Virus record (IMG/VR): IMGVR_UViG_3300035660_001437
From: a virus
Lineage: Duplodnaviria; Heunggongvirae; Uroviricota; Caudoviricetes
Length of the DNA stretch: 64,000 nucleotides
Direction: 5' to 3' (one strand)
The translations under genes and the position numbers were made by a program. Below, in pieces: positions 9,752 through 64,000 of this stretch (its first letter is position 1; each line of letters begins with the position of its first letter). The notes beneath the pieces were generated by a model, which saw nothing but the letters and a program-made list of their open reading frames with translations, did no database searches and had not been told where the DNA came from.

Positions 9752-9771
9752 GCACTTTTACGCAAAGGGTT

Positions 9772-9800: not shown

Positions 9801-9822
9801 AGCTGTTTGCATGTTGCGAACT

Positions 9823-10270: not shown

Positions 10271-10633
10271 TCATTTCGCTAGCCTTCTTTTTCTATCTCT
10301 GTAAAACCCGGTCTCTTCTATCGGTTTATAATCTTTTACGCGCTCATCTCCGGTCAAAGAAATCTTTGTCAAATTCTTGTACTCTTCGAGCCATTTAGAG
10401 GTGTCGATGCCGAAGACGTAATTGATAACTTTACAGCAAGTACAAACGCAATCTTCCGGAAAAGCGAAGCCGATGTGCTCTATTATAGGTTCTATAACTT
10501 CTACCGCTTTTATCACATGCTCTTCGTCGAGGTACTCTAACATTCCCATGGCACTGCCGAGCTTCTCTTTGAAGAACTCTCTCTGGAAATCTTTGACTTG
10601 TTTATCGAAACTTTTTCTTTCGCTCATCTTCAC
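10271..10633 (-). CDS. hypothetical protein
   Basis: 120-aa ORF. Confidence 0.35.
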   Translation of the reverse strand: MKMSERKSFDKQVKDFQREFFKEKLGSAMGMLEYLDEEHVIKAVEVIEPIIEHIGFAFPEDCVCTCCKVINYVFGIDTSKWLEEYKNLTKISLTGDERVKDYKPIEETGFYRDRKRRLAK

Positions 10634-49012: not shown

Positions 49013-49733
49013 GAACAGCTCTCTTTTAGAGGAAATAAAGAAGCTTGAGAGCGAAAAAGTAGAAGTATTAACTTCTTCTAGCGGAAACAAGTCGAAATGC
49101 AGGAATGAACTTGCAAAAATTGCGAGCGGTGAAATTCTGGTGTTCTTTGACGATGATGTGATTCTTAGGCATAATACTATAGAAGAACTGCTGCTGCCTT
49201 TTGACAAGTTTGAAAATGTTGCTATAGTCGGCGGTATAAATGTGCCTATGTACAGCGCTGGTGATTGGAGAGAAACGATTTCAAGTTCTCTGCTTTCTTC
49301 ATCGCTATCTATGGCAAGGTCTGCTGCAAGATACACGTCGAAAGGCGATATCCGCGAAACCGACGAGTCTGAAATAATACTGTGTAATATGGCAATGCGA
49401 AGAGACGTTTTTCTAAAAGCAGGCGGGCTGCCAGAAAACATTATTCCGTGTGAGGAAAACGTTCTTATTAATCGAGTCGCGAAATTGGGATATAAAATAA
49501 TTTACAACCCATTTGCAGTAGTGTATCACGAGAGGCCGAAACTTTTCATGTCTTATTTTAAAAAAATGTTCGGGTACGGTAAGGGCAGGGGAATCATGAT
49601 GCGGAGAGGAGAGGGCGCGCCGAAAATGTTGTGGAGGCCGAATTTAAAGTGGGTTGTTTATCCGATTGCTTTCGCGGGGCACTACGTTTCTTACTTGAGC
49701 GGCGTGCTTTGGGGTTTGGTGAGAGGAAAATGA
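48975..49733 (+). CDS. family-2 glycosyltransferase
   Basis: MKISIIIAHH at N-terminus (GT-A fold start) and DxD (VFFDDDV). Confidence 0.55.
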   Translation: MKISIIIAHHPSRNSSLLEEIKKLESEKVEVLTSSSGNKSKCRNELAKIASGEILVFFDDDVILRHNTIEELLLPFDKFENVAIVGGINVPMYSAGDWRETISSSLLSSSLSMARSAARYTSKGDIRETDESEIILCNMAMRRDVFLKAGGLPENIIPCEENVLINRVAKLGYKIIYNPFAVVYHERPKLFMSYFKKMFGYGKGRGIMMRRGEGAPKMLWRPNLKWVVYPIAFAGHYVSYLSGVLWGLVRGK

Positions 49734-51178
49734 AGATTTTGTGGCTTTGCCCGCCAAGTAAAGTCGAGGGCGAATACCCACTTGTTGGGCAAAATCGCTG
49801 GTTCAAATACCTTCCTTTTAAAGCGAATTTTATTTATCCGATTATCGCTGCAGAAGGCGTCACGCTTATAAAGAACGCGGGTCACGAAATAGACTTTTTG
49901 GAAGCGCCTGCAGAGCAAAAGAGCATGGTAGATGTTCTCCAGCAAATATGGAAAAAAGGTTACGACCTCGTAATCATGGAGGGCAGGACTGCTATAATTA
50001 CGTGGATTTGGCAAGTCGCGAAAACAATAAAGAGCACCAGCATCAGAACAAAAGTGGCGCTGTACGGCGACCACGTGATAGTGAGGCCTCATGAAAGCTT
50101 GCAGAATGGAATAGACTACATTATTGACTGCGGCGACTACGATTATGGCGCTTTTAAACTCGTAGAAGAGCTCTCAAAGACCGGATACGCAAATCCTATA
50201 TTCAGCGAAAATATCATGAAAAACCTCGATGATTTGCCATTCGCGGACAGAGATTTGGTGCCGTGGCACAACTACTTCGAGTCGTGGCGTCACAGAGATA
50301 AATTTGGTTGGTATCAGAGCGGGCGGGGATGCTGGGCAAAATGTACGTTCTGCTCTTGGGTTTACACTTTTTACGGCCATACCATCAGGCTTTTCTCTCC
50401 GAAAAGAATCGCAGACGAAGTGCAGTACGCAACGGAAAAATGGGGTATTGAGGAATACCTCGATGACGCAGACACGTTCATTCCAAAACCGTGGGGCGTT
50501 CAATTTGCGAAAGAGCTCGAGGGCAGAGAGATTGAAATACTATGGAACGTGCAAACTCGCGCGGATACCGCGCTTACCGCCAATGAAAGTGATTGGAAGT
50601 TAATGCGAGACAGCGGGTTGAGAGTAGTAAAGCTCGGCGTCGACGGCGGTAACGAATACACGCTCAACAAAATACAAAAGGGGTACAGAATGGAAGACGC
50701 AGAGAATGCGGTAAAGTTGCTGAAGAAAGCAGGCATAGAAGTCCACATAAACATGATTATTGGCTGGCCTTGGGAAACGAAAAAGGAAGCTTACGGCGTG
50801 ATAAAGTGGGTCAAGCGGTTGAAACCGAATCAGGCGCAGTTTTCTCTTATAGAACCGTTCATCGGTACGCCGATTTTCCAAGAAGCAATAGATAATAAAT
50901 GGTTCGTGAACGCACCGCAAGATTGGGACAAATACGACATGAAGACGCCTATTTTGCAAGGAGAAATGAGCGCCAAGGAAATAGCAAAATTGCACAGGGA
51001 CGCGTGGAAGATGTTTTACTTGAACCCGAGGTTCATAATATATCAGCTTGAAAAATCAACTAAATTAGCTTTCGAAGAAAGAAATCTTGACAGCTTCAGA
51101 CATATTTGGAGAGGGTACAAAGGAGTTACAGAGGGGCACATGAAGGCGGTTAGCACAGGGGATACGTCTAATGAATAA
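49730..51178 (+). CDS. B12-binding radical SAM enzyme
   Basis: Likely starts at MKILWLCPP (ATGA overlap with upstream stop; the track ORF begins at 49631 with an in-frame extension). N-terminal B12-binding-like Rossmann region, then radical-SAM CxxxCxxC (GCWAKCTFCSW). Confidence 0.7.
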   Translation: MKILWLCPPSKVEGEYPLVGQNRWFKYLPFKANFIYPIIAAEGVTLIKNAGHEIDFLEAPAEQKSMVDVLQQIWKKGYDLVIMEGRTAIITWIWQVAKTIKSTSIRTKVALYGDHVIVRPHESLQNGIDYIIDCGDYDYGAFKLVEELSKTGYANPIFSENIMKNLDDLPFADRDLVPWHNYFESWRHRDKFGWYQSGRGCWAKCTFCSWVYTFYGHTIRLFSPKRIADEVQYATEKWGIEEYLDDADTFIPKPWGVQFAKELEGREIEILWNVQTRADTALTANESDWKLMRDSGLRVVKLGVDGGNEYTLNKIQKGYRMEDAENAVKLLKKAGIEVHINMIIGWPWETKKEAYGVIKWVKRLKPNQAQFSLIEPFIGTPIFQEAIDNKWFVNAPQDWDKYDMKTPILQGEMSAKEIAKLHRDAWKMFYLNPRFIIYQLEKSTKLAFEERNLDSFRHIWRGYKGVTEGHMKAVSTGDTSNE

Positions 51179-51827
51179 ACTGTCAAATCTTAAAATACCA
51201 AAAAATGTCGCAATTCTTGCGGTAGTGATTGGATTCGTATTTGTGTCCGTTTATTTCGTCTTGCTTTTCATACCGACAGAAGCAATAATATCTGTTGCCA
51301 GCATAACTAGTATCGGCGGCTCTCACCCGCTTGGAATTTGCGCTTTTATAGGCATGAACGTTTACGCGGCATATAGGTTCGCCAGGCTGGCGAAACTAAA
51401 TCCGAATTCCTCTATTGGTGAGAAGATATTGGCGAAAGTTATTGCAGTAGGAGCGGGAATGTCAGTGGCCCACTCTTTTTTTTACATGTGCGACATGTGT
51501 TCAATACCGACTTTCATAGTTAGAGAAGGAATTGAAGTCCTGCCAAGAATAAGCTATTTGGGCTGGATATGGAATCATGATTTGGGATTTATGAGGTCGA
51601 TGGGATTCCAACTAGTCGTGCTGTACGCTTACAGGAAGTTCATAAATTGGAAGTCGCTCATTGCGATAATCCCTCTAATGTTAACCCTCGCCTTTTACAC
51701 GTACTTCCTCTTTAGCTTCACCGGAATGCACCCACTCGTAGGTGAAACTAGAGCTCTGTTTTTCCTTTTCAGCTACATCCCAACCTGGATTATCTTCTAT
51801 TGGGCATTTGCCAGGTTCTTGAGGTGA
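51171..51827 (+). CDS. polytopic membrane protein
   Basis: 218 aa, about 6 TM helices. Confidence 0.45.
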   Translation: MNKLSNLKIPKNVAILAVVIGFVFVSVYFVLLFIPTEAIISVASITSIGGSHPLGICAFIGMNVYAAYRFARLAKLNPNSSIGEKILAKVIAVGAGMSVAHSFFYMCDMCSIPTFIVREGIEVLPRISYLGWIWNHDLGFMRSMGFQLVVLYAYRKFINWKSLIAIIPLMLTLAFYTYFLFSFTGMHPLVGETRALFFLFSYIPTWIIFYWAFARFLR

Positions 51828-51834
51828 TGAGACG

Positions 51835-52929
51835 TTGAACATTATAGAGCGGATTTTTTGGACAATTCCAAACGTAAACCTATTTGCCGGGAGTCTTAAC
51901 ATTGTTGGTGCCGTTTGGTTCTTTTGCTTGTTTGCTTATGCCTACAGGAGATTCAGACTCGGCTTTCCGCAAACTACTGCAATTTCTCTTGCTTTCATCA
52001 TATCTTTGTTTACGCACTACCTCTTAGATGAATCTTCCGTCATTATTGTTTGGATAATGTACCATTTTGAGTATAATCTTTTCTTGAGCAAAATTCCAAT
52101 ATATATCAGCATGATTATAGCGTTTTATATCATTGCGAGATTTGCGAGGCCGCATCTCAAGGTGGATAGAAAAACAGTTGCTATGTTCGTGACGGTGTGC
52201 CTGTTCGATATGTTTGTATTTTACGTGCTTGTCTCAAATTATGGAACAGCGGGATACAGGAGTTATGACTCTCCAGACAGAGAAATAGCTTTTTGGACTT
52301 TCTATCCTCTTGCAAAAGTTATGTGGTTCGGCTTCTTTTTTACTATGTGGAAAAAGAGAGAATTGTTTGGTCTTGATTTCTTGCAAAAGTACGGAATTGG
52401 TGAGGCGTACATGCTTTGCGCTCTAAAACGATTGTTGAGAAAAATCAAAAAAGAGTTTAACATACATCAGATTTCAGAGATTCTAACAAATGAGTCGTCT
52501 GTAGACTTTCCCGATAGGGACTGGGAAATTGGCGAAAATTCAGAACTTTTATTTGTTTTCAGACCGACTGGCGATGCGATGAACAAGGTGAAAAACAGCG
52601 GCGCAAAATATGTGCTGCTTGCAGCGACAAACAAAAATCATTTCTTGCGCATGGTCAAAAGGCTGCATAGTTTGCTGGGTACAAAAGGAGAAGTTTATGC
52701 GACAAAAAAAGAGCTGAAAGAACTGGCAAAAAAGCACGGGTTTGAACCAATAAAAGACGGGTATTACGACTCGCCGCCTTGGGTCGACCACTCTACACGC
52801 GTTATCGTACCTGCAAAGAAACTTAGGATTGACTTGAATGACGTAAAGTCTTTATTATTTTTTGAGCTCTTTAACTCCAGGTTTACGTCTCACCATCCAT
52901 ACGTTCTGGCCAGGAGGAATGCGAGATGA
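51835..52929 (+). CDS. membrane protein with C-terminal soluble domain
   Basis: 364 aa; N-terminal about 200 aa polytopic, C-terminal soluble. Confidence 0.5.
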   Translation: MNIIERIFWTIPNVNLFAGSLNIVGAVWFFCLFAYAYRRFRLGFPQTTAISLAFIISLFTHYLLDESSVIIVWIMYHFEYNLFLSKIPIYISMIIAFYIIARFARPHLKVDRKTVAMFVTVCLFDMFVFYVLVSNYGTAGYRSYDSPDREIAFWTFYPLAKVMWFGFFFTMWKKRELFGLDFLQKYGIGEAYMLCALKRLLRKIKKEFNIHQISEILTNESSVDFPDRDWEIGENSELLFVFRPTGDAMNKVKNSGAKYVLLAATNKNHFLRMVKRLHSLLGTKGEVYATKKELKELAKKHGFEPIKDGYYDSPPWVDHSTRVIVPAKKLRIDLNDVKSLLFFELFNSRFTSHHPYVLARRNAR

Positions 52930-53675
52930 CTGACTTGCCGAAGATAATGCTGTCGAAAGCTCTGTCCAATCTGATGCTTTTAGGAGGAAAAATAAAGTGG
53001 GCATGCGAGAGAAATTGCGCAACGCTACCTGATAGCAAAATAATTTATTTTTATCCAGGAGATAGAGTAAACGTTTACGGCTATTTGACAACTATATGGA
53101 AATATAACGTCTACGGAGAAATAGAAAAAAATGGGCTGGTAGTTGACGCTGGGGCAAGCATAGGTGTTTACAGCTTGAAAGTTGCAGACATCGCATCCAG
53201 AGTTATCGCTGTAGAGCCGGTGCCGAGAATATTCACGATGCTCGAGAAAAATATAGCGGCAAACATGGTGACAAACGTTATTCCGGTAAACCTGGCTTTA
53301 AGCAATTATGATGGCTCTATAGAGCTGCATTTAACGTCGCAGCTTTTCGGAGAGGGACATGAAATTTCTCCGCTGCACGTTCCGAAAAGTAAAATAGTAG
53401 TTCCGTGCGCTAAATTGGACACGCTCATGAAAAATCTCAAGGTAGACGAAATCACAAATCTCAAAATCGACATAGAGGGGCACGAGCTTTATCTACTTGA
53501 CGGTTCGAAAAGTCTATTATCGCGAGGTTCAATAAAGAATATGTCTATTGCTGTTTATCATTTCAAGGACGAAGAAATGCAGGTTCGAAAGTTTTTGGAG
53601 ATTTACGGCTACAGCACCACTTCCAAGTTCTTCTTTGACGGCGACATAATACTCTATGCGAGGCTAAGAAGATGA
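52926..53675 (+). CDS. FkbM-family SAM-dependent methyltransferase
   Basis: VVDAGASIGVYSLKVA SAM-binding motif typical of FkbM family; 249 aa. Confidence 0.55.
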   Translation: MTDLPKIMLSKALSNLMLLGGKIKWACERNCATLPDSKIIYFYPGDRVNVYGYLTTIWKYNVYGEIEKNGLVVDAGASIGVYSLKVADIASRVIAVEPVPRIFTMLEKNIAANMVTNVIPVNLALSNYDGSIELHLTSQLFGEGHEISPLHVPKSKIVVPCAKLDTLMKNLKVDEITNLKIDIEGHELYLLDGSKSLLSRGSIKNMSIAVYHFKDEEMQVRKFLEIYGYSTTSKFFFDGDIILYARLRR

Positions 53676-54331
53676 GCGTCGGAATAGTTATACCCACTTT
53701 AAACGAAGAAAAGAATTTAGAGAAACTTCTTCCTGCGCTTAGAGAGTATTTTAACGGCGCGAAAATAATCATCGTGGACGACCAGAGTAAAGATGCAACG
53801 GTTGACGTTGCGAGGAGTTACGATTGCATCGTTCTCAAAGCGTACCAAAGAAGAGGTCTTGGCAACAGCTATAAAGAAGGATTATTGACAGCATTGACTT
53901 TGGATTGCGAAATAATAGTGCAATTAGACGCAGACCATCCCGCGCGTCCGGCTTTTGAAATGGTTAACACACTTTTGGCAAAAGAAGACGACATGATAAT
54001 TGGAATTGAAACCGGTAGCAGGACGTTGCACAGCAAAGTGGCGAGTTGGATTGCAAGAAATTATCTCGGCCTTGATTTCAAACAACCGACTTGTGGGTAC
54101 ATGGTGTTCAGCGCAGGTTTCTTAAGCAGACTCGACGTTTCAACTCTTAAATCAAGAGGAGATGCGTTCCATTTGGAGCTTCTCTACAAAGCAAGCAAAA
54201 TGTCGTCGAAAATAGAAGAAGTCAGATTCCAAGGCGTCGCGCATGAAAAAGCTTCTTACAATAGAGTTTTGCGCTGGCTTTGGGAGCTGTTTTTAATGCG
54301 CTGGAGGCAGAGAAAAGCTTATAAACCTTAA
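53672..54331 (+). CDS. family-2 glycosyltransferase (dolichyl-phosphate sugar synthase-like)
   Basis: MSVGIVIPTLNEEKNL...KIIIVDDQSKD pattern of Dpm1/GtrB-like GT2. Confidence 0.6.
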   Translation: MSVGIVIPTLNEEKNLEKLLPALREYFNGAKIIIVDDQSKDATVDVARSYDCIVLKAYQRRGLGNSYKEGLLTALTLDCEIIVQLDADHPARPAFEMVNTLLAKEDDMIIGIETGSRTLHSKVASWIARNYLGLDFKQPTCGYMVFSAGFLSRLDVSTLKSRGDAFHLELLYKASKMSSKIEEVRFQGVAHEKASYNRVLRWLWELFLMRWRQRKAYKP

Positions 54332-54588: not shown

Positions 54589-54858
54589 ATGCGTGCGCAT
54601 ACGTTAAACCGAGGACTTATTATGGTATGGCGCTGCAATAAATGCGGGTTAGAGCTAAAGCCTGAAGATAAGATGCCAACAAAGATGCTTGAGAGGTTGC
54701 TGAAAGACTCGCGCTGCCCTAAAGACATCAAGCGTGCTTTCAAATACGGCATGGTTTGTCCGGAGTGCGGGAGAAAGCTGAGGATTATTGGCATTTACCT
54801 GTGCCCGAACTGTGAGGCAATATGTTTAGAAGGAGCGGAGCATATTGAAGCCTTTTGA
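54589..54858 (+). CDS. zinc-ribbon protein
   Basis: CNKCG...CPECG...CPNCE. Confidence 0.4.
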   Translation: MRAHTLNRGLIMVWRCNKCGLELKPEDKMPTKMLERLLKDSRCPKDIKRAFKYGMVCPECGRKLRIIGIYLCPNCEAICLEGAEHIEAF

Positions 54859-55663
54859 AGAGCTTTCAATAAGCGGAAAATGGGCCATAGAACATCCTGG
54901 GTATTCGAGAGAATACCGCAGAACGCAGAAGTTTAGAGAACGGCAAAGAAAATATCACAAGTGGTATTTTAGACATCTCGAATCCGCAAGGAAGCGCGGC
55001 GAAAAGTGGCGAAGGGAGCATCCCGAGTACAATAAAGAATATTTCGCAAGGTCGGAAGTTAAAGATAAGATGAGAGAATATGTGAGAAAATGGCAGAAGG
55101 ATTTGAAAGAAGAAGTCTTTTCTCATTACTCAAGCGGCGCGCCGGAATGTGCCTGCTGCGGAGAAATGAGAATTGAATTCCTGACCATTGACCACATTGG
55201 AGGCGGAGGGAATAGGCATAGAAAAGAAATAGGTGGCAGCTCGACGATTTATTTATGGCTCAAGCGAAACAATTATCCGCCAGGATTTAGAGTTCTCTGT
55301 TTTAACTGCAACTTCCTAGTATTCAAACAGAAAGTGAGATGCGCAAAATATCCTCGCCATCAAGGGCGGAGGATTAATCTTAGGCTGGAGGTCTTGTATC
55401 ATTACTCTAACGGTGCATCTGTCTGTAAGTGCTGCGGCGAGGGCAATATTGACGTCTTGACTATTCACCATGTTGGAGGAGGCGGGCTAAAACATCTTGA
55501 AGAAATAGGCGGAGATATTTGCGGCTGGCTCAAACGCAACAATTACCCGCCGGGCTTCCAGGTGCTGTGCTGGAACTGCAATGAGGCAAAAGCCCATTAC
55601 GGCTTCTGCCCGCACGAAATTGAGAGAGCAAGGGAAGAGTTTAAGAAAATTTGTATCGTCTAG
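54845..55663 (+). CDS. tandem HNH-motif endonuclease-like protein
   Basis: Two copies of CxCCGE-x5-(F/V)LTI(D/H)H(I/V)GGGG...YPPGF(R/Q)VLC(F/W)NCN. Confidence 0.55.
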   Translation: MKPFEELSISGKWAIEHPGYSREYRRTQKFRERQRKYHKWYFRHLESARKRGEKWRREHPEYNKEYFARSEVKDKMREYVRKWQKDLKEEVFSHYSSGAPECACCGEMRIEFLTIDHIGGGGNRHRKEIGGSSTIYLWLKRNNYPPGFRVLCFNCNFLVFKQKVRCAKYPRHQGRRINLRLEVLYHYSNGASVCKCCGEGNIDVLTIHHVGGGGLKHLEEIGGDICGWLKRNNYPPGFQVLCWNCNEAKAHYGFCPHEIERAREEFKKICIV

Positions 55664-55949
55664 CTTCTGAAGCAGAGTTTTCAACGAGCGAATTGGCAGC
55701 ACACACCCAAGTGAGCTTCGTAAGAAATAGCGCTCTTAGCAACTAGTTTTTAATATCGTTTTCCGCAAAGTATCGTAGAAATATTTAAATAGTAGCTTCA
55801 TCACTTAGGTGCTGAATATGTGATAAGAAAGTGATTCACATGGCAAAAAGAGCGAAATTGTTGCTTGACAAGCACCATAAAAAACACAGAGCCAGAGTGC
55901 GCAAATGGCGTTCTAAGCATCCCGGCAAAACCTACAAGAAAATCGGCCC

Positions 55950-56153
55950 ATGTTGGAAGTGGGTAGCTCCAAAGAGGCGATAAAGTTGCCAAAGACCAAG
56001 CACGTCAAACTAGGAGACGGGCTCGACAAACTTTTCAAGGAGAGAGCGACGTACAGCTCGTCGGCACACAAAGCAAAAGGCTCAACCTGGCTAAAAGAAC
56101 CCCCGAAATACGGCACACAAAAAGCCGGCGGTAAAAGACGGAAGAGGAGGTGA
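55950..56153 (+). CDS. small basic protein
   Basis: 67 aa ending GGKRRKRR. Confidence 0.35.
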   Translation: MLEVGSSKEAIKLPKTKHVKLGDGLDKLFKERATYSSSAHKAKGSTWLKEPPKYGTQKAGGKRRKRR

Positions 56154-56157
56154 TTGC

Positions 56158-56367
56158 GTGGTGTACAGTTGGAGAGGTAAAAAGCCACTTCCGATGGGCG
56201 GGTTCGTCACGGAGGAAATCAGCGGCGGCAAAGTTGGCAAAAAATCTTCTAAGAAACGTGCAAAGAAAGTGTGGACAGGCCCAATCAAATCGCCTGCCAA
56301 ATCGTCTTTCCACAAATCCATCGAAAAGGGCAAGAGAGCGAAGAAGAACTGGACTGGAGGGTTCTAG
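56158..56367 (+). CDS. small basic protein with repeated KRAKK(V/N)WTG motif
   Basis: 69 aa; KRAKKVWTGP and KRAKKNWTGGF. Confidence 0.4.
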   Translation: MVYSWRGKKPLPMGGFVTEEISGGKVGKKSSKKRAKKVWTGPIKSPAKSSFHKSIEKGKRAKKNWTGGF

Positions 56368-56736
56368 ATGGCAGTGGGCTTTAGAAAAAGAGTGAGAGGC
56401 ACTGCCAGGCAGATAGGAAAAGCTTTTCCTGTTTTTACAAAGAGGAAACTGCCCACGAAATTCGGAGGCAAAAGAAGATTGAAGCCGAAAGACACGATTG
56501 TTCTGCAATTTGAATACCCGGACGAGGCTGAAGCTTTCAGAGATGCTTACTATGCAGTAGGCGCGGTGTCTGACTTCCCAGCGCCCGAAGATGAAAAGGT
56601 GGTTAAAAACACAGTCATTCTCAGGTTCGACAAAGAAATCATAGAAGACAATCCAGACCTTGCAGACGACACGCTTGAATACCTCAAAAGAGCAAGTTTC
56701 TTTACGGTCAAGCCGAAAAAAGTGTGGACGGCCTAG
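56368..56736 (+). CDS. basic-leader paralog family member A
   Basis: N-terminus MAVGFRKRVRGTARQIGKAFPVFTKRKLP; SD GGAGGG upstream; C-terminus ends KPKKVWTA. Confidence 0.55.
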   Translation: MAVGFRKRVRGTARQIGKAFPVFTKRKLPTKFGGKRRLKPKDTIVLQFEYPDEAEAFRDAYYAVGAVSDFPAPEDEKVVKNTVILRFDKEIIEDNPDLADDTLEYLKRASFFTVKPKKVWTA

Positions 56737-57057
56737 GTGGTTGACATGGCAATCAAAGCAAAAAACAAGAGCTGCATAGCCGGCGCGCTGAGAGGCAAAG
56801 TCGGCTGGCCACTTGTCAGCAAGCGAAGGAGAGGCGGAAAAAAGCCGAAATATTGGATTCAAGAAGCAATCGGTGTCAAGGGCTCGCTGAGAGAAGAAGT
56901 CATGCGGAGGAAGGGAAGAGCCGGTTTTGACTCGCGCGGCAGGATAAAAGCGAGTGTCATAGAAGAAATCATACGCAAAGACGGCTTCAAAAAGCAGGCA
57001 GTCCTGGCAAGAACGCTCCGCGGGCTGAAAAAGCGAGGTAAAAGGAGGGAGAAGTAA
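56737..57057 (+). CDS. small basic protein
   Basis: 106 aa, K/R-rich. Confidence 0.4.
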   Translation: MVDMAIKAKNKSCIAGALRGKVGWPLVSKRRRGGKKPKYWIQEAIGVKGSLREEVMRRKGRAGFDSRGRIKASVIEEIIRKDGFKKQAVLARTLRGLKKRGKRREK

Positions 57058-57059
57058 AA

Positions 57060-57302
57060 ATGCCGAATCCCGTAAGAGCAATGTTTTGGGGACTGCGGAA
57101 ACAGGGGTACTCAGCTGCAGAAGCAGAAAAGCGAACTAGAGAATATTTTTCGGCGAAAAAAGCACGCAAAAGTGATAAGAAAATGCCGCAAAGGAGAATG
57201 GGAAAACCGAGGACAGATGCAGAAAGGAGAGCTAGGCACATGGCTATATATGGTACTGAAAAGTTACCGCCTAGAGGAACAGGGCTGCGAAGGAGAGGCT
57301 GA
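57060..57302 (+). CDS. small basic protein (MPN...)
   Basis: 80 aa; SD AGGAGGG upstream. Confidence 0.4.
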   Translation: MPNPVRAMFWGLRKQGYSAAEAEKRTREYFSAKKARKSDKKMPQRRMGKPRTDAERRARHMAIYGTEKLPPRGTGLRRRG

Positions 57303-57593
57303 AAGTGCCGAAAACAAACATAAAAGCAAAACATATCTTCATAAGAAACAAAAAGACAGGCACGTCAAAATGGGTGACGAAAGCGCAGTGGAACAAAATC
57401 AAAAAGACTCCCCCGAAAAAGAGGCCATGGAGAAGAGTTCGAGCGTTTTGAGGCGAAAGTAAATGCCAAAAAGAAATAAAAGCAGAAAATACGTGCACGT
57501 CGTAACTAAAGAAACTCCAGTTCCAACGCATCTTTTCCTGACCAAAAAAGAATACAATAAGCTCTCCAGAAAAGCACCAAAAAGATTCCAAAA

Positions 57594-57842
57594 GTGGAGA
57601 TACTAATGACAATCGAGTTTTACAAGAGAAAAAAGCAAGCGAAGAACTGGGCTAAGCAAGTGAAAAGATTTGCAAGAAGAGACATAAAAGTCGCCAGAGT
57701 CAGAGTTGCAAATGTAGGTTTTTTGAATAACGCCGGCGGAAGAAAGATAGGCGGAAGTGGCAAGTTCAAACCAGGAGAAGTGGGCTACGTTCTAGCTTTC
57801 AGAGGCATGAGCGAGGCAGGATTGAGGAGGGCGCGAAAGTAA
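57594..57842 (+). CDS. small basic protein
   Basis: 82 aa. Confidence 0.4.
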   Translation: MEILMTIEFYKRKKQAKNWAKQVKRFARRDIKVARVRVANVGFLNNAGGRKIGGSGKFKPGEVGYVLAFRGMSEAGLRRARK

Positions 57843-58002
57843 AATGCCATGGACAACTAGGAAAATGAAGCTCAACAAGAGGGGCGACAAGCTGGGCACA
57901 TTAGAAGGGATATATTCTCTGAGAACCGTGAAATGGAACCCGAAATCTGGAATACTCAAGCTTCGGTATTTCAGGCCAAAGAAAAAGCGAGGGAGAAAAT
58001 AG

Positions 58003-58203
58003 ATGCCGTACAAAATCAGGTTCTATCCAAAAGGCGTGAAGAAACGAAGCCTCCTTAGAAAGATGGCCAAGCCAGGCGCGATAAGCGTATCCAGTGAAGC
58101 GACTTGGCCATCAAAGCAAAAAGCTAAAAATTCAAAACTGTACAAAACTGCATTCTGGTCTGGTTACAGCCCGAGAGTTGAAAAAGTGAGGCGAAAGAAA
58201 TGA
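58003..58203 (+). CDS. small basic protein (MPYK...)
   Basis: 66 aa. Confidence 0.4.
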   Translation: MPYKIRFYPKGVKKRSLLRKMAKPGAISVSSEATWPSKQKAKNSKLYKTAFWSGYSPRVEKVRRKK

Positions 58204-58388
58204 CATACAGACTGAGAGTTGCAACGAGAATATCCAAAAAGACCGGCAGACCCGCCGGCCCCAGAATGACCAGCGTCAAATATCGAAAACTAAAATCAGC
58301 CAGGATAGACGCAAGAGCTATCGCAAATCCATACGATATCGTAAAAGTTGACAAAAAAGGAAAAGTCGTAAAGAGGTATTACAGATGA
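58200..58388 (+). CDS. small basic protein
   Basis: 62 aa; ATGA overlaps both sides. Confidence 0.4.
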   Translation: MTYRLRVATRISKKTGRPAGPRMTSVKYRKLKSARIDARAIANPYDIVKVDKKGKVVKRYYR

Positions 58389-58951
58389 GCAAAATCGGTT
58401 TCAGAACGCGCAAGCGTGGCACTCCTAAACAAATAGGGAAGAAATTTCCGGTGCTGGAGAAAAAGCCGCTGCCTAAACTGAGAGTTGGCGGCAAGACTAT
58501 CATGAAGGTAAAAGAGGGCGATAGATTCGTTGCAGCCAGAGACGTTCCGATAAGAAACACCGAGCTCAGATGGAGAGACCCCGTAGGTCTGATGGAGAAA
58601 CTGCATTCGGGAAAATTCATAGTCGACAAGGTGATTGGAGACGAAGTTTGGCTTGCAGACGCTGATTGGGAGCCAACCGGCAGAATCACTTTTCACTCTT
58701 CAAAGCACGGCCACATCATATTCAAGAAAGACCTGAAGAAATTGAGGCGATGGAGAAAATTGCGAGATGCCGGCAGTTTAGGAATAATGACACCGCCTTC
58801 TCAAGAGACATATCGCAGAAGAGGTACTGCAGCAGGCGTTGATATTCCAGTAGAGCCTCGCAAGGAGAGGCTCGAAGAAATAGCTGAAAGAACGAGACGA
58901 AGAATGGCGTCGAAGCCAGAAAGAATGAGAAAAAAGAGAGGATTTGTATGA
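58385..58951 (+). CDS. basic-leader paralog family member B
   Basis: MSKIGFRTRKRGTPKQIGKKFPVLEKKPLPKL. Confidence 0.55.
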   Translation: MSKIGFRTRKRGTPKQIGKKFPVLEKKPLPKLRVGGKTIMKVKEGDRFVAARDVPIRNTELRWRDPVGLMEKLHSGKFIVDKVIGDEVWLADADWEPTGRITFHSSKHGHIIFKKDLKKLRRWRKLRDAGSLGIMTPPSQETYRRRGTAAGVDIPVEPRKERLEEIAERTRRRMASKPERMRKKRGFV

Positions 58952-59355
58952 AGTTCAAAAAGCGAATTAGAGGGACGCCAAAACAAATAGGAAAGCCGTT
59001 TCCTATTGGCGAAAAGAGAAAGCTGCCGAAGCTGAGAATGGCACGAAGAAAACTAACGCCTTATGACTTGCCATACGAGAAAGACATATCAATTGGGCCG
59101 TACACGATTCACTGGCGCTATCACGAATACGCCGATGACTACGCAGTGAGCTTGTGGTTAGGCGACAAGTGCATAGATTGGCGTATGCCAAAAACCAAGA
59201 GAGACACAATAAAGGCAATCAAAGAGTTCAGAAAAAGAGCTTCTGAAGAGTTGGGGAAGTCAGAAAGGGCAACCGAATGGTACGCCAGGCGCTATCCAAT
59301 GATGTTCAGAGGCGGCGGCAAGCGCGCCGCGTACTACGGCGGAAAAACAAGATGA
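58948..59355 (+). CDS. basic-leader paralog family member C
   Basis: MKFKKRIRGTPKQIGKPFPIGEKRKLPKL. Confidence 0.55.
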   Translation: MKFKKRIRGTPKQIGKPFPIGEKRKLPKLRMARRKLTPYDLPYEKDISIGPYTIHWRYHEYADDYAVSLWLGDKCIDWRMPKTKRDTIKAIKEFRKRASEELGKSERATEWYARRYPMMFRGGGKRAAYYGGKTR

Positions 59356-59369
59356 GAGGGATGCTGTAA

Positions 59370-59576
59370 ATGCCAAAAACAAGGCGAAAACTGATGGGAA
59401 CTAAAAAGCCTTATGGTTATGTTGTTAGTGGCTCAAGAGTTAAGCATGGAGTTTATTGTAAGACCCTGACTGCGGCAAAAAAGGAAATGAATAGGCAAAT
59501 GTTCAGGCTTCGCAGCAAGGAATCTGGAATTAGAGAAGTTTCAAAAGAAGAATGGCTAAAGCGGAGGAAAAAGTAA
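59370..59576 (+). CDS. small basic protein (MPKTRRK...)
   Basis: 68 aa. Confidence 0.4.
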   Translation: MPKTRRKLMGTKKPYGYVVSGSRVKHGVYCKTLTAAKKEMNRQMFRLRSKESGIREVSKEEWLKRRKK

Positions 59577-59655
59577 TGCGCGAGAAATGGAAAAAGAAGC
59601 GGCAGCGAAGAGAGAAAAAGAAGAGAGAGAAAAGAAAGGAGAGATATAAATAAAA

Positions 59656-60303
59656 GTGCAAGAACTAAAGCCATACGACGAGCTTTCTCAAGGCGGAAAA
59701 TGGGCTAGAGACCATCCAGAATACAAAGAACACAACAAAAAACATTTAAAAGAATACAAAAGAGAATACCGCCTAAACAATAAACTCCGGGTTTTAGAGC
59801 ATTACTCCAATGGTGCTATGGCATGCGCAGTTTGCGGAAAAAAGAACATTAACTTTCTGACGGTAGACCACATAAATGGCGGAGGATGCCGGCATAGGAG
59901 AGAAGTAAATGCCGATATGTTGTATTGGCTCGAACGCAAATACAGGACAACCGGCATTTGGCCTAAAGGATACCAAGTGCTGTGCGCCAACCATAATTTC
60001 ATAAAGAAATTTGAAGAGAACGGTTATGCACCAAATAACCAAACTTTGGCAATAGGAAGGTTGATAATCGAAATACGCCATTTGTTGGGAGAAAAATGCG
60101 AAATTTGTGGGTTTGAAGACGCAAGAGCGCTACACATAGACCACGTTAATGGCGGTGGCTTGGAAGAGCTAAGAAGCTTCAGCGGCACTTATGCCTATTA
60201 TAAAAACATTCATGACAAAATCCTGGCCGGCTCAAGAGATTATCAGCTTTTGTGCGCGAATCATAATCTTGAAAAGGAATTAAGCAAAAGAGAGGCTAGG
60301 TGA
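59656..60303 (+). CDS. tandem HNH-motif endonuclease-like protein
   Basis: CAVCGKKNINFLTVDHINGGG...YQVLCANHNF and CEICGFEDARALHIDHVNGGG...YQLLCANHNL. Confidence 0.55.
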   Translation: MQELKPYDELSQGGKWARDHPEYKEHNKKHLKEYKREYRLNNKLRVLEHYSNGAMACAVCGKKNINFLTVDHINGGGCRHRREVNADMLYWLERKYRTTGIWPKGYQVLCANHNFIKKFEENGYAPNNQTLAIGRLIIEIRHLLGEKCEICGFEDARALHIDHVNGGGLEELRSFSGTYAYYKNIHDKILAGSRDYQLLCANHNLEKELSKREAR

Positions 60304-60354
60304 AAAAACATTGAGCTTAACGGAAAACAGAGAGGTACAATAGAGGTATAAGTA

Positions 60355-60810
60355 ATGCCAAAAACAGCAAAATACCCCGTTGAAAAAAGAGGGGCAAGCT
60401 ACCAGCGCTATCTCGGAAAACTGCGCAGGAGAAGCAAGTGGAAAAAGCGGGCGCGCAGGCCAAAAAGAGAGAAAGCCGCTCCTATACTCGTCGTTGAGAA
60501 GAAAACCAAGAGAGTTCTAGTGAAGAAAGAGAAATTGCCAACCAGTATGCGAGAGCTGGCAGCTGCTGTGTCAAAGCCGGCAAAGCATAAAGATTTCAAA
60601 AAGTGGAGACTAGAAAAGCCAAAACCGATTTCTGTCGTCAAAAGAGCTACCATGAAAGAAATCGCGACAATGAGAAGAGCGATGGGCATATCTGCAAGCA
60701 AAGCGAGGAGACTTCTCAGGATGGCTCAAAGAACCGCGCAGCCGGAATACAAACCAAAAAGAAAGAAGAAAATATGGCTACCCAAAACAATTCAGAGAGG
60801 ACTGAGATAA
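60355..60810 (+). CDS. basic protein (MPKTAK...)
   Basis: 151 aa, about 35% K/R. Confidence 0.45.
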   Translation: MPKTAKYPVEKRGASYQRYLGKLRRRSKWKKRARRPKREKAAPILVVEKKTKRVLVKKEKLPTSMRELAAAVSKPAKHKDFKKWRLEKPKPISVVKRATMKEIATMRRAMGISASKARRLLRMAQRTAQPEYKPKRKKKIWLPKTIQRGLR

Positions 60811-61047
60811 ATGCCGACATTTCTCCAGGAAACTTTTAGCTTCGCTCCTCACTCCGTTCGGAGAAAGCGTAAAAGAGCGTATACCAGAAAAAAGTCGCGG
60901 GTTAAAAGGAGAGCAAAGACAACTCGAAAGCGCAGCGGGTATGCTTTTGGAAAAGAAGGCGAAGCAATTATTAGGACAACAGGCGCGCTCATGGCGACAG
61001 GCGCAGCGATAGGAACAATGGGTCTTATAGGCAAACTCGGTAAATGA
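60811..61047 (+). CDS. small basic protein with C-terminal Gly/Ala-rich hydrophobic segment
   Basis: 78 aa. Confidence 0.4.
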   Translation: MPTFLQETFSFAPHSVRRKRKRAYTRKKSRVKRRAKTTRKRSGYAFGKEGEAIIRTTGALMATGAAIGTMGLIGKLGK

Positions 61048-61058
61048 GGTGGAAATAG

Positions 61059-61280
61059 TTGCCAATAGGCAAAAAGCTGCCTCGATACAAGGTGATTCGC
61101 TGCAATGCGACCAAAGAGAGGCATTTAATCACAAGAATTGACAGAGACAAATATCCTCGCAGGCACGTTCCTGTTGACGTCATTTTTAAAGCCATTCGCA
61201 GGCACTACAAAAAATACCATCCAGTTTTGTTCAAAAGAATGATTAGGAAAGCGCAATATACGAAGAGGAAGCGCAAATAA
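61059..61280 (+). CDS. small basic protein (MPIGKK...)
   Basis: 73 aa. Confidence 0.4.
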   Translation: MPIGKKLPRYKVIRCNATKERHLITRIDRDKYPRRHVPVDVIFKAIRRHYKKYHPVLFKRMIRKAQYTKRKRK

Positions 61281-61405
61281 TGGGAAGGCAAGAATTGACT
61301 AAGAGGCAAAAGCGAATATCGTGGAAGAAGCGATATTATGAACTTCTTAGTGAGCTTCTTAAACAAAGCAAACCGAGGAAGAAAAAGCGATAGGGGAGCG
61401 CGCTC

Positions 61406-61708
61406 ATGCCGCGAAGAAGACAAAAGCCAAAAGTATCCATTAAAAAGAGATTGGTAAATGGCAGCATAAAGTTCACGTGGACTAACGATGGTTGGTTAGC
61501 TGTTGTCGCAAAGCCTATCCCTCGCTCTACGTTGTGGGCGCTAAGCAAACGCGGCAAAAAGCGAGGCATGAAATTTTATAATCTATATTCAAAAGACCCG
61601 CGCGAGCCAAAATATTTCACCATTCCGTTCAGCGATGAAGAGCGGAAAAATATAGCTAGCGGTCTCGACCCGCACGGGTTGCCATTTGGCAGGAGAAAAA
61701 AGAAATGA
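61406..61708 (+). CDS. small basic protein (MPRRRQK...)
   Basis: 100 aa. Confidence 0.4.
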   Translation: MPRRRQKPKVSIKKRLVNGSIKFTWTNDGWLAVVAKPIPRSTLWALSKRGKKRGMKFYNLYSKDPREPKYFTIPFSDEERKNIASGLDPHGLPFGRRKKK

Positions 61709-61902
61709 GTCTTAAAACAATAAGAAGAACAGTCAAAAAATCAATTACCGACGAGAAGCAAGCTTCTCCTCACTACAGAAAACTGGCATCCAAGATGAGC
61801 AAAGCCGGCCTTAAGAAAGAGGCCAAAACAGTTCGAGGAATAGCGAAAGTTGAAACGCAGCACAGGAAAAAGCTGAAGAAGATTTTGAGGAAACTGAAAT
61901 GA
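61705..61902 (+). CDS. small basic protein
   Basis: 65 aa. Confidence 0.4.
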   Translation: MSLKTIRRTVKKSITDEKQASPHYRKLASKMSKAGLKKEAKTVRGIAKVETQHRKKLKKILRKLK

Positions 61903-62453
61903 AATGGCTCAAACGCAAGCGCGGAACAGATAGACAGAAAGGAAAGCCGTTTCCGGTAAGAGGCAAAAGAAAGCTTCCTGAGATTGTTTACCCGATAAAG
62001 TACGACAAGAAAAAAGCCGTAAACAGTAAGCGTGCGTTTTATCGCTTCTTCGGCCATCTAACTCGCTCAGCATACGAGAGATTGAAAGATAACAAATTGC
62101 CTGGAAATGACGCCTATTTTCTTCTCGATGATAACACAATCTTTGCGGGAGAACTTCCTGAGAACAAGAAAGCGTGGCGTGGTTTAATCAAAAAAGCCGT
62201 AAAAGCTGAAAAACCTCTAGCTTACGGCGTAATTACGCCGATATGGATTTCTCCTCCAACAAAAGGGGTGTTGCCAAGCCGCCATCCGTTCAGGAAAGAA
62301 GGTGTGATTATAACGGTGTATTCGCCGCGCGAGCAGAAGGCGTCTTTCGTGGAATACGAATTTATTACTCCCAAGCTAATAGAAGTGAAGAAGCCAGTTG
62401 TTTGGGAGAAGTTCGAAGACAGTCTCGTCGGGAACGTTTATGGGGTGAAATGA
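61899..62453 (+). CDS. basic-leader paralog family member D
   Basis: MKWLKRKRGTDRQKGKPFPVRGKRKLPEI. Confidence 0.55.
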   Translation: MKWLKRKRGTDRQKGKPFPVRGKRKLPEIVYPIKYDKKKAVNSKRAFYRFFGHLTRSAYERLKDNKLPGNDAYFLLDDNTIFAGELPENKKAWRGLIKKAVKAEKPLAYGVITPIWISPPTKGVLPSRHPFRKEGVIITVYSPREQKASFVEYEFITPKLIEVKKPVVWEKFEDSLVGNVYGVK

Positions 62454-63091
62454 ATTTGAAGTGGAAGAAAAGGGTTAGAGGCACTCGCAGGCAAATAGGG
62501 AAACCGTTTCCTGTTGGCGAGAAAAAGCGGCTGCCCAGATTCGAAGTGCCGTCGACAAAAGAGTGGCCGCGCATAAAGCTCTATTACAATTACATCGAGC
62601 AGGTCGGCCAGAAGATGCTTGCGGAGGGCTTCGACCCAAAAACAATCGAGAAAATCCTGTCTATGGCGTCTAAAAAGAAAGTGCGAAACTTCAATGAGAT
62701 GGTGATGGACATACAGCTTCCGCTGGCAAAAGACAAGAGAGTAGACATCGACACACTCGATACTTTTATTGGAAGATTGATAAAATATGATGTGAGAGCC
62801 GGCACTCTTTCTGGAGGCAAACGCAAGCCGACCAGCGTCGCAATTACGTACCGCGACGAGTTCGGAATCGAGCGAAAAAAGAGGGTGAAAGTGAAAGATA
62901 CGCCAGAGTTTTACCAGCAAGTGAGAGCAAAAGGGTATGAAATTCACGACGTATCGGGCAGAAGAGGCAGTTCCCAATGCGCAGCCGAGAGACGTCCGAG
63001 CATGACAGGCGGGAAGTTCCTTGAAAAATTGGCATGGATGTTGAGACATCCAGGAGACCCTATGCCAGAGTGGATTCCTGTTGGCGATTAG
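62450..63091 (+). CDS. basic-leader paralog family member E (contains an R1 repeat copy in frame near the C-terminus)
   Basis: MNLKWKKRVRGTRRQIGKPFPVGEKKRLPRF; ATGA overlap with D; R1 repeat at 62970-63006 is translated as SSQCAAERRPSMTG. Confidence 0.5.
   Translation: MNLKWKKRVRGTRRQIGKPFPVGEKKRLPRFEVPSTKEWPRIKLYYNYIEQVGQKMLAEGFDPKTIEKILSMASKKKVRNFNEMVMDIQLPLAKDKRVDIDTLDTFIGRLIKYDVRAGTLSGGKRKPTSVAITYRDEFGIERKKRVKVKDTPEFYQQVRAKGYEIHDVSGRRGSSQCAAERRPSMTGGKFLEKLAWMLRHPGDPMPEWIPVGD
62970..63006. repeat. R1 dispersed repeat, forward, inside a CDS
   Basis: GTTCCCAATGCGCAGCCGAGAGACGTCCGAGCATGAC, identical to the copy at 39721-39757. Confidence 0.65.
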
Positions 63092-63105
63092 GAGATTGAG
63101 CGCAG

Positions 63106-63693
63106 TTGAAGTGGAAAACTCGCACGCGGGGAAGCGCCAGGCAAATCGGGCAAAAGTTCCCGGTAAGAGAGAAGAAAAAGCTGCCGAAACTGATACAAAC
63201 AACATTTCCGTCTGGCAGAAAGGGGTTAGAGCCATTTTATAGAAAAGCTCAATCTTACAGAGAAGCTCTCGCAAAGCGAATGGCGAGAAAGCCTGTGTTG
63301 ATGCGCTATTATGTAAGCCCGGAGGGATACGGAAGCGACCAATTCGGAATGATACAATTTTACTACGACGGCGCTTTTCTCTCAAATGCGGTGAGGCTGG
63401 TAACTCACGATAAGTGGGTCGGCAGCTGGGACAAGAGCAAGCCGTGGATTTACATTGACGACGATGTACCGCCAAAATATTGGAAGTCTCTAGCAATTCA
63501 CGAATCAGTTGAAAAATATCTCAAAGAAAAATATGGTTTGGACGAGAACGCAGAGGGACACGAGGCATCTGAAGAGGTTGAAAGGAGAAGATTCTGCAAA
63601 GAGAGCAAATGCCCGGCAGATTGGGACGAATATTCGAAAATAGTTGAGAGAGTGCACAGGGCGGAGATGAAATATGCCGAAAGAAATAGTTGA
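63106..63693 (+). CDS. basic-leader paralog family member F (TTG start)
   Basis: (M)KWKTRTRGSARQIGQKFPVREKKKLPKL; SD AGGAG 13 nt upstream. Confidence 0.5.
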   Translation: MKWKTRTRGSARQIGQKFPVREKKKLPKLIQTTFPSGRKGLEPFYRKAQSYREALAKRMARKPVLMRYYVSPEGYGSDQFGMIQFYYDGAFLSNAVRLVTHDKWVGSWDKSKPWIYIDDDVPPKYWKSLAIHESVEKYLKEKYGLDENAEGHEASEEVERRRFCKESKCPADWDEYSKIVERVHRAEMKYAERNS

Positions 63694-63931
63694 CACTTTT
63701 CCGAATACACACGCCGGTCTCGCAACCTCATCGGTTGTTTTGAGGTACATGAGAAAGAAAGACCGCAGCCACAGGTACAGCAGGCATTTCCCGCGCGGTC
63801 TGCGGTCGATAAAGTTTCACATCGTAAAAGAATCGTGGCATAAGCCGAAGAAGAGGATTAAAGATACGGTAACAAAAAAAAGAAAAAGAAGAGAAAAAAG
63901 GAGAAGAGAAAGATTAGGTGAAAGAAAATGA
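63674..63931 (+). CDS. small basic protein (MPKEIV...)
   Basis: 85 aa ending KKRKRREKRRRERLGERK. Confidence 0.4.
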   Translation: MPKEIVDTFPNTHAGLATSSVVLRYMRKKDRSHRYSRHFPRGLRSIKFHIVKESWHKPKKRIKDTVTKKRKRREKRRRERLGERK

Positions 63932-64000
63932 GAAAAATTAAAAAGAGACGTGAAATCTCTTTCAAGGCAACACCTAGAAAGCCAAAGATAGTTCACATTT

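Follow-up and report, generated by a model that had tools for sequence, protein, structure and literature searches.

A co-directional array of small basic proteins with a shared N-terminal tag and a VP2 homologue in a putative archaeal virus

The basic-protein array and its VP2 homologue

The virus record IMGVR_UViG_3300035660_001437, a stretch of 64,000 nt that is analysed here in its whole length and called the window, ends in a dense array of genes for small, strongly basic proteins. Six of these genes share a conserved N-terminal peptide, referred to below as the tag, and one encodes a homologue, at the sequence level, of the fusellovirus protein VP2. Our count of the open reading frames (ORFs) of the window places 26 consecutive genes head to tail on the plus strand (55840–63931), close to the roughly 25 co-directional genes that a first-pass annotation, made from the sequence alone, had described from about 55.8 kb onward. 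The products have a median length of 79 aa (range 37–215); the earlier description of the genes as tiny suits the 18 that encode 106 aa or less, but not six of 122–213 aa. The median isoelectric point (pI) is 11.1, with 23 of the 26 values above 10, against 9.1 for the other 97 ORFs of the window. Lysine and arginine make up a fraction of 0.30 of the residues, compared with 0.16 elsewhere in the window (Mann–Whitney p=4e-12), and the net charge sums to +478 across 2,635 aa, so that the very high Lys/Arg content noted at first pass was borne out by the composition and pI checks.

The head-to-tail packing, ribosome-binding-like sites and ATGA overlaps reported earlier were likewise recovered. 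Intergenic gaps range from -34 to +79 nt and include six ATGA (-4) overlaps, and GAGG or GGAG sequences resembling Shine–Dalgarno (SD) sites lie at positions -17 to -4 of 20 of the 26 starts, compared with a background of 13% in the same purine-rich DNA (p=2e-13). The MPK and MPR starts singled out previously reflect a wider enrichment of Met-Pro, which opens 11 of the 26 array proteins and 3 of the 97 others (Fisher p=1e-6). Met-Pro starts are also frequent in the arrays of relatives (L004, L006 and L010), in tagged and untagged genes alike; here and below, L004, L006, L007, L010, L011 and L018 are contigs of relatives, and P-numbers denote cluster representatives of the tag family. An unacetylated N-terminal proline is one possible explanation for this enrichment. 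The array is probably co-transcribed.

The array strand is 63% purine (A 36.5%, G 26.4%) and therefore has longer ORFs in all frames, together with two opposite-strand shadow ORFs of 348 and 352 aa on the pyrimidine-rich complement, which are not genes and could mislead gene callers. Such a composition raises the possibility that the array ORFs themselves are chance products of a stop-poor strand, and two of the smallest, both listed at first pass, are indeed doubtful. The 25-aa ORF lies in low-complexity AAG/AGA sequence, and in the syntenic relative a different frame of this stretch runs into the next gene; the 37-aa ORF has no counterpart in the relative, and the gene calls of the JGI contig do not include it. 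Neither could be upheld as a gene. However, the ratio of nonsynonymous to synonymous substitution rates (dN/dS) is 0.11–0.35 in 15 orthologue pairs between the array and the syntenic relative L018, including products of 47–69 aa, and the worry is thereby removed. The SD-like sites, the juxtaposed stop and start codons, the occurrence of the tag family in 117 protein clusters and one confidently predicted fold also speak against chance. The array consists of genuine genes that evolve under purifying selection, and the purine richness of its strand does not account for them; for the array overall the chance explanation is refuted, and we give it practically no weight.

As had been foreseen, the array does not stop at position 64000. 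Two contigs that carry identical sequence, one from JGI (7.5 kb) and one from Logan (2.1 kb), extend it beyond the window by a basic ORF of 51 aa and by another tagged gene, the seventh. In an all-against-all comparison, the ~17 untagged array genes were small basic singletons except for the tandem pair 57305/57463. The paralogous tagged set takes up ~40% of the array coding length and bears partly enzyme-like C-terminal modules, and the first-pass picture of a core protein set was incomplete in this respect.

The gene at 56737–57057 provides the sole solid homology among the small basic proteins. Its product scored 20 bits (E 9.4e-4) against the Pfam family Fusello_VP2_Capsid (PF25632), under the gathering score of 27; tagged relatives reach E 2.6e-6 against the same family, and P0128 has a precomputed match to it. 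An orthologue of the protein matches phrog_15706 (E 3e-10), and the profile of its five-member family matches SSV1 VP2 with 29.9 bits (hhalign 96.6%, E 5.8e-10, 43 columns, 35% identity). These profile comparisons show that the protein is a homologue of fusellovirus VP2, a DNA-binding protein purified from SSV1 particles (PMC3367457). The VP2-like domain begins directly after the sequence RRGGKKPK, and in P0033, a tagged protein of 486 aa, the VP2 module is C-terminal and comes after ...SGGK. Through this homology fusellovirus VP2, otherwise an orphan, joins a much wider modular family. A comparison of the VP2-like protein with the PDB returned noise only, and its AlphaFold2 (AF2) model, built from four near-identical sequences, was unusable, with a predicted local distance difference test (pLDDT) score of 49. 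The VP2-like module is also 44–47% identical over 54 residues to hypothetical proteins of the Thermus phages Tsatsa and phiFa (PQ109078.1, 5486–5650, and MH673672.2, 34649–34813; E 1e-3 and 1e-2), and the VP2 fold may extend to bacterial viruses.

The earlier proposal that the array encodes DNA- or RNA-condensing core proteins is plausible by way of the VP2 homologue; the likeness to protamines or adenovirus pVII that accompanied it found no homology to support it. Another possibility would be that the virus encodes ribosomal or ribosome-associated proteins, or RNA chaperones acting on translation, given that the operon-like layout, the MPK and MPR starts and the composition are like those of ribosomal-protein operons. 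The first-pass annotation had recognised no known ribosomal protein, and our Pfam scan at E<=1 agrees, its best matches being faint and sub-threshold (L31e, 15.1 bits with a cut-off of 25; L41, 9.9 bits with a cut-off of 22.3), with no ribosomal family at cut-off. No tRNA and no Rfam family was detected in a scan of the window, and no rRNA or translation genes lie nearby; the neighbours are not ribosomal-protein genes but those for PolB, TopoIB, ThyX, HNH endonucleases, glycosyltransferases and ORFans. With a DNA-binding virion protein as the only solid homology, a role in translation appears extremely improbable, and these profile comparisons already go most of the way to refuting it.

The N-terminal tag family and the GGK tripeptide

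The tag is common to the array genes that start at 56368, 58385, 58948, 61899, 62450 and 63106 and to the seventh just past the window, and within the window it is confined to the array. It follows the motif [FW][RK]xRx[RH]G[TS]xxQ[IV]GxxFP[VI]..K.KLP, an example of the peptide being MSKIGFRTRKRGTPKQIGKKFPVLEKKKLPK; aligned across the six window genes, it reads K/R-x-R-x-R-G-T/S-x-x-Q-I-G-K/Q-x-F-P-V/I-x-x-K-K/R-x-L-P. All-against-all comparison and alignments revealed that most pairs among the six paralogues are similar over the first ~30–40 residues only. Given that the tag codons vary at synonymous positions, the tag is conserved at the protein level.

A search of 1.84 billion (1.84e9) protein representatives with a 40-column tag profile and no word index gave matches in 117 clusters at E<=1e-3, 19 of them at E<=1e-10. 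The tag occupies residues 1–40 in nearly all proteins of the family, which are 46–486 aa long and have unrelated C-termini; one larger protein, P0001 (1,234 aa), contains three internal copies. Among the tagged proteins Pfam recognised ParB_N in three, DUF5661 and Fusello_VP2 in two each, and Peptidase_M78 and Zn_peptidase_2 in one each, and no domain in the remainder. The tag itself had no match in Pfam, its profile retrieved nothing from the PDB at E<=10, and only chance matches were obtained in the isolate phages of INPHARED. It was absent from IMG/VR (two pattern sets) and from the 185,579 species genomes of GTDB, and a short tag alignment submitted to a word-indexed protein search gave 29 candidates, none of which scored. 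Judged by its sequence, the tag is a new, widespread and previously undescribed N-terminal family on modular proteins, a short portable handle on more than 100 protein clusters of unassigned function.

Metagenomes were scanned for relatives with an 11-sequence tag alignment. The syntenic relative carries ten tagged genes, all co-directional. A second, shorter tag subtype, WLSRHxDGxHFxVGGKAHLPPK, occurs in ~11 of the 13 genes of the L004 array, and the two subtypes are related (hhalign 90.6%, E 1e-6). The L004 array (1713–12718 of the 32-kb contig Ga0315296_10000627) mixes this second subtype with two genes of the window subtype, and its cargo is mostly without a Pfam name, DUF6839 being found in one protein and a weak M48/SprT-like match in one. 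A conserved 'core' tagged protein of ~310–350 aa, whose gene starts ~90 nt past the window end, is 44–48% identical over ~190 residues across three element types. Distant tag loci encode Cas1 3–4 kb from the tagged 'core' gene (L011, 2615–3622, minus strand; L007, 67–933, plus strand; E 5e-56 and 3e-37, respectively), and L011 also has DUF5343-HEPN_Swt1 and TIR genes downstream. A casposon-like element, an element carrying Cas1 or an insertion into a defence island may account for these two loci.

The AF2 model of the 63106 product, built from 12 sequences, reached a pLDDT of 83. Residues 1–20 are predicted to form two short strands (pLDDT ~80) and residues 27–40 a disordered linker, and the remainder folds into an alpha/beta domain. 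A Foldseek comparison with viral models (BFVD) weakly matched metallopeptidase, SprT-like, IrrE-like and 'large polyvalent protein' domains. The zincin-like motif reads HExxE...EGHE in place of HExxH, and catalytic activity is therefore uncertain. Homologues of this C-terminal domain also occur untagged, one of them in another element from the same sample, which bears an integrase, and the tag is modular for that reason.

The tripeptide GGK is strongly enriched in the tagged proteins. The 116 tagged representatives contain 73 copies, against 13.1+-3.9 expected from shuffles (5.6-fold), while GGR is depleted (4 against 9.1 expected). The array proteins of the window contain 9 copies in 2,466 aa and its other proteins 6 in 16,532 aa, a tenfold higher density in the array. 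Moreover, 22 of 56 homology-segment boundaries adjoin GGK, compared with 8.4+-2.6 under random placement. We read GGK, on this distribution, as a junction motif between shuffled modules; it may also serve as a processing site, cleavage there being hypothetical. The residue at P4 before GGK is K or R in 49 cases and I, L or M in 32, with no clear hydrophobic preference. An origin of GGK as in-frame remnants of SD sites (GGAGG) was ruled out, since 7 of the 9 array sites use GGC GGN AAR codons.

A 30-aa N-terminus conserved on variable 'cores' also recalls the leaders of ribosomally synthesised and post-translationally modified peptides (RiPPs). The tagged proteins would then be substrates of the B12-radical S-adenosylmethionine (SAM) protein and the methyltransferase encoded nearby, cut at the double glycine; both enzyme genes lie just upstream of the array and are kept in the relative, and GGK follows within 30 residues of the tag in 12 of the 116 proteins. 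Against this, 74 of the 116 lack GGK altogether, and the cores are folded domains of 100–450 aa, as the confident AF2 model illustrates, and not peptides. A C39 peptidase, an ABC exporter and a RiPP recognition element were all lacking in scans of the window, and the placement of the radical SAM and methyltransferase genes among those for glycosyltransferases suggests glycan modification. We consider leader-type processing very improbable, and a classification with double-glycine-leader RiPP or bacteriocin precursors was rejected on the small number of GGK sites near the tag, the folded cores and the missing C39 peptidase and ABC exporter.

The element, its relatives and its likely host

The features of the array and its surroundings are listed in Table 1.

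Table 1. Features of the window in order of position. Identities, dN/dS values and orthologues refer to the relative; bit scores are those of the tag hidden Markov model (HMM).
Feature	Position	Strand	Remarks
TopoIB	8243–9751	-	Topoisom_I_N, Topoisom_I and Topo_C_assoc domains
Strand switch	~42,300–42,600		genes leftward on minus, rightward on plus strand; minimum of cumulative GC skew
1,386-aa ORFan	43549–47709	+	N-terminal signal-like hydrophobic segment; no Pfam or PHROG match
Cluster just 5' of array	48975–54331	+	two GT2, B12-binding radical SAM, FkbM-type methyltransferase, membrane ORFans; kept in relative
B12-radical SAM protein	49631–51178		within the preceding cluster
FkbM methyltransferase	52926–53675		within the same cluster
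HNH-like gene next to array	54845–55663	+	matches phrog_2255, E 2.5e-14
T5 run	55747		precedes TATA-like box of array
TATA-like box ATATTTAAATA	55783–55793	+	candidate promoter ~50 nt 5' of first array gene; pattern only
47-aa basic protein	55840–55983	+	pI 11.9, K+R 0.40; 91% identical, dN/dS 0.28
67-aa basic protein	55950–56153	+	C-terminus ...AGGKRRKRR; dN/dS 0.21
Shadow ORF, 348 aa	56035–57081	-	not a gene
69-aa basic protein	56158–56367	+	contains ISGGKVGKK; dN/dS 0.16
Tagged protein 1, 122 aa	56368–56736	+	tag, FGGK, acidic C-terminal module; 49.7 bits; dN/dS 0.20
VP2 homologue, 106 aa	56737–57057	+	JGI call: 103 aa from 56746; dN/dS 0.12
80-aa basic protein	57060–57302	+	MPNPVR... family, with a member in L004 too
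48-aa basic protein	57305–57451	+	MPKTNIK...; dN/dS 0.13
47-aa basic protein	57463–57606	+	tandem paralogue of 57305 gene (E 3e-4); no orthologue
78–82-aa basic protein	57594–57842	+	start uncertain (JGI: 57606); no orthologue
52-aa basic protein	57844–58002	+	100% identical
66-aa basic protein	58003–58203	+	MPYKIRFYPKG family, kept in L010 and L004; dN/dS 0.35
62-aa basic protein	58200–58388	+
Tagged protein 2, 188 aa	58385–58951	+	RVGGK after tag; 55.4 bits
Tagged protein 3, 135 aa	58948–59355	+	C-terminal ...RYPMMFRGGGKRAAYYGGKTR module common to P0010, P0014 and P0022; 52.9 bits
68-aa basic protein	59370–59576	+	MPKTRRK...
Low-complexity AAG/AGA spacer	59577–59654	+	purine-rich; doubtful 25-aa ORF, frame ambiguous
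HNH-like endonuclease, 215 aa	59656–60303	+	pI 9.0, outside basic set; insertion
151-aa basic protein	60355–60810	+	KYPVEKRGxSYQRYL module, then degenerate tag-like stretch; similarity to P0049 and P0031; dN/dS 0.13
78-aa basic protein	60811–61047	+
73-aa basic protein	61059–61280	+	MPIGKK..., TTG start; dN/dS 0.17
Doubtful 37-aa ORF	61280–61393	+	absent from relative; no JGI gene call
100-aa basic protein	61406–61708	+	MPRRRQKPK...; 95% identical, dN/dS 0.27
65-aa K-rich basic helical protein	61705–61902	+	rubrerythrin-like half-motif PF02915 (first helical pair), E 2.2e-7; no orthologue
Tagged protein 4, 184 aa	61899–62453	+	48.8 bits; dN/dS 0.11
Shadow ORF, 352 aa	62438–63496	-	not a gene
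Tagged protein 5, 213 aa	62450–63091	+	two GGK-delimited C-terminal modules; 54.3 bits; dN/dS 0.30
Tagged protein 6, 195 aa	63106–63693	+	tag, disordered linker, zincin-like alpha/beta domain; dN/dS 0.12
85-aa basic protein	63674–63931	+
Conserved 'core' tagged protein	start ~64091		past window end

The minus strand of the first 42 kb carries a replication-type set, namely PolB, a full-length eukaryote-type TopoIB, an RFC-like AAA+ protein, ThyX and a PolX thumb domain, together with a Dam methylase, NADAR, DUF1643 and Band-7 proteins and PadR and other helix-turn-helix regulators. From 42.5 kb the plus strand encodes the secreted ORFan of 1,386 aa, the two GT2 glycosyltransferases, the B12-radical SAM protein and the FkbM methyltransferase, followed by the array. 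Most ORFs of the window had no match in Pfam or PHROG. The strand switch is a point of divergent transcription and possibly a replication origin; the secreted ORFan is a candidate adhesin or large structural protein, and the cluster just 5' of the array is a possible glycan or protein modification module.

The HNH-like gene inside the array and the one next to it are double-HNH-like paralogues (35% identity, E 6e-31). Both are insertions, because they are absent from the syntenic relative, and they look like recent homing-endonuclease insertions, one into and one beside the array. The relative carries two LAGLIDADG genes instead of this pair (L010, 740–1615 and 5523–5999).

The syntenic relative was assembled twice independently, at 78,982 bp (JGI, Ga0315296_10000115) and 79,145 bp (ENA, k141_1513561), with nearly coinciding ends, and the VP2-like protein of the window is recorded on a contig of 75,408 bp (JGI 3300035179, Logan SRR11721899). 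We conclude from these assemblies and the gene content that the window belongs to an archaeal, uncultivated double-stranded DNA virus-like element of ~75–79 kb. The closest cellular homologues of TopoIB are from Bathyarchaeia (50–51% identity), Hadarchaeota (48–49%), Methanomethylicia (~47%) and Nitrososphaerota (43–46%), and on this similarity the host is likely a Bathyarchaeia-like member of the Thermoproteota. We found no paper joining topoisomerase IB with archaeal viruses from metagenomes. PolB is distant (~23% identity) from the PolBs of haloarchaeal tailed viruses and had no match in IMG/VR. By the tag and PolB searches, the lineage does not appear to be represented in the virus and genome collections searched; it is missed by current virus-detection pipelines, and the tag could serve as a marker for it in sediment and peat metagenomes.

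Putative morphogenesis genes lie outside the window and are visible in the relative. Its array of ~11 kb is followed by another tagged gene, which overlaps a gene for a 284-aa Walker-A protein (a putative ATPase; L018, 16207–17061), and then by genes for three hydrophobic proteins (53, 65 and 79 aa long). The latter two have two hydrophobic segments each, the 53-aa protein apparently only one, and the trio precedes three secreted or membrane-anchored proteins. This architecture matches the kit of spindle-shaped viruses, which comprises VP1 and VP3 with two hydrophobic helices, VP2, an AAA+ ATPase and a glycosyltransferase (PMC10541130). In phmmer comparisons of the hydrophobic proteins with SSV1 VP1 and VP3, scores were near 0. 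The label 'spindle-shaped virus', which draws on VP2 and gene architecture only, is unproven.

A proposed nucleoprotein and cargo module, and its known counterparts

The reading that we tentatively favour, as a quite possible though not yet probable one, is that the array is a virion nucleoprotein and cargo module, in which a coat of basic proteins covers the DNA and the tag holds further proteins in place for packaging alongside it; we infer the DNA binding, the virion location, the function of the tag, the packaging and any cleavage that it invokes. The ~17 small cationic proteins (37–106 aa), the VP2 homologue included, would attach to the viral DNA, offset its charge and condense it. The basic tag of 30 residues, which a flexible linker joins to an unrelated C-terminal module, would act as an address label by which cargo of many kinds is anchored to the nucleoprotein or the inside of the capsid. 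These modules are zincin-like in the window and ParB-like, M78-like, VP2-like and often unnamed in the relatives. The tethered cargo would be co-packaged and delivered with the genome, and GGK would mark the module junctions and possibly a processing site. A bolder version, which we regard as possible but rather unlikely, holds that an archaeal virus lineage loads a fast-diversifying arsenal of 10–13 genes per genome by means of a two-subtype address tag and GG↓K junctions. In this version the arsenal comprises zincin-like peptidases, ParB-like nucleases, VP2-like DNA-binding modules and dozens of unnamed domains.

Several observations weigh against the favoured reading. VP2 is dispensable for the infectivity of SSV1 (PMC3367457). 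The putative morphogenesis genes of the relative had no PHROG or PDB matches and no recognisable similarity to known capsid proteins or ATPases. The sharp difference in gene content between close relatives would be less usual for a core structural module than for an accessory or counter-defence island, and the distant tag-bearing loci adjoin Cas1 and not structural genes. The three internal tags of P0001 indicate that a free N-terminus is not required. Finally, GGK is present in 42 of the 116 tagged proteins, by which it was ruled out as a universal leader-cleavage site, and family scans of the window found no GG↓K-specific protease.

The same genes could instead form an accessory island for host takeover or counter-defence, whose proteins act in the infected cell and are not packaged. 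They might attach to nucleic acids of host or virus, inhibit defence nucleases or reorganise the host chromatin, with the tag as a shared nucleic-acid- or partner-binding arm. Gene flux argues for such an island: between two close relatives ~8 array genes are without an orthologue while others are 92–100% identical, cassettes appear to have been replaced, HNH genes have been inserted, and the tagged paralogues have expanded to 10–13 per genome. ParB-like and zincin-like cargo is typical of conflict systems (PMC5512222), and the distant tagged genes adjoin Cas1, HEPN and TIR genes. However, known anti-defence proteins are usually acidic or neutral and not of pI 11, a VP2 homologue is present, the array lies directly upstream of the putative morphogenesis genes, and several of the small genes are among those nearly unchanged in the relative. 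We therefore regard an unpackaged island as unlikely, if still a serious contender to the nucleoprotein and cargo module.

Very little is known about DNA condensation and protein carry-over in archaeal viruses that are not head-tailed. Basic DNA-binding proteins in virions and targeting peptides that cargo proteins share are both established kinds, and the variant described here is new. If the tag were a generic DNA-binding arm only, what remained of the finding would be a novel protein family from a novel group of viruses.

The nearest counterpart of the basic proteins is SSV1 VP2. Both it and the window protein are small and basic, and each comes from a virus that also encodes glycosyltransferases and small hydrophobic proteins, candidates for the capsid. 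The window protein differs in a 38-residue N-terminal extension ending GGKKPK, and in relatives the VP2 module can form the C-terminus of a long tagged protein, as in P0033. SSV1 has a single basic protein where ~25 are found here, a genome of 15 kb compared with ~79 kb, and a host of a different lineage.

The adenovirus core contains the proteins pVII, V and mu, and adenain cuts at (M/I/L)XGG↓X. The array resembles it in being a set of highly basic proteins, for which genome condensation is proposed here, and in the enrichment of Gly-Gly-X at module junctions. It differs in its prokaryote-type organisation, with SD sites and an operon, and in the lack of a hydrophobic preference at P4; Pfam searches of the window gave no pVII or mu homology and no clan-CE cysteine protease.

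In phage T4, the internal proteins IPI–III carry a capsid-targeting sequence (CTS), and phiKZ-like phages have paralogous inner-body proteins. As in these systems, array proteins that are otherwise unrelated or divergent begin with a short conserved peptide, their genes are clustered and co-directional, and delivery with the genome is proposed. The tag shares no sequence similarity with the CTS and is a strongly basic peptide of 30 residues; searches of the window gave no prohead protease, cleavage of the tag is hypothetical, and the virus is probably not head-tailed.

The cargo itself is closest in repertoire to the phage polyvalent proteins (Iyer et al. 2017), which are packaged in virions, have zincin-like metallopeptidase and ParB-like domains as hallmarks and are often encoded beside structural genes (PMC5512222). 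Zincin-like, ParB-like and many novel small domains recur among the tagged proteins, in a modular, shuffled architecture near candidate structural genes, and a division into units by processing is proposed in both cases. While polyvalent proteins combine 2–15 effector domains in one polypeptide, the tagged genes are mostly separate and encode 1–3 modules in 100–380 aa, each with its own tag; only P0001 is large. The element is also archaeal, and HExxE stands in place of HExxH. If the packaging of tagged cargo proves true, the array would correspond, in archaeal and 'unbundled' form, to the phage polyvalent proteins and the T4 internal proteins.

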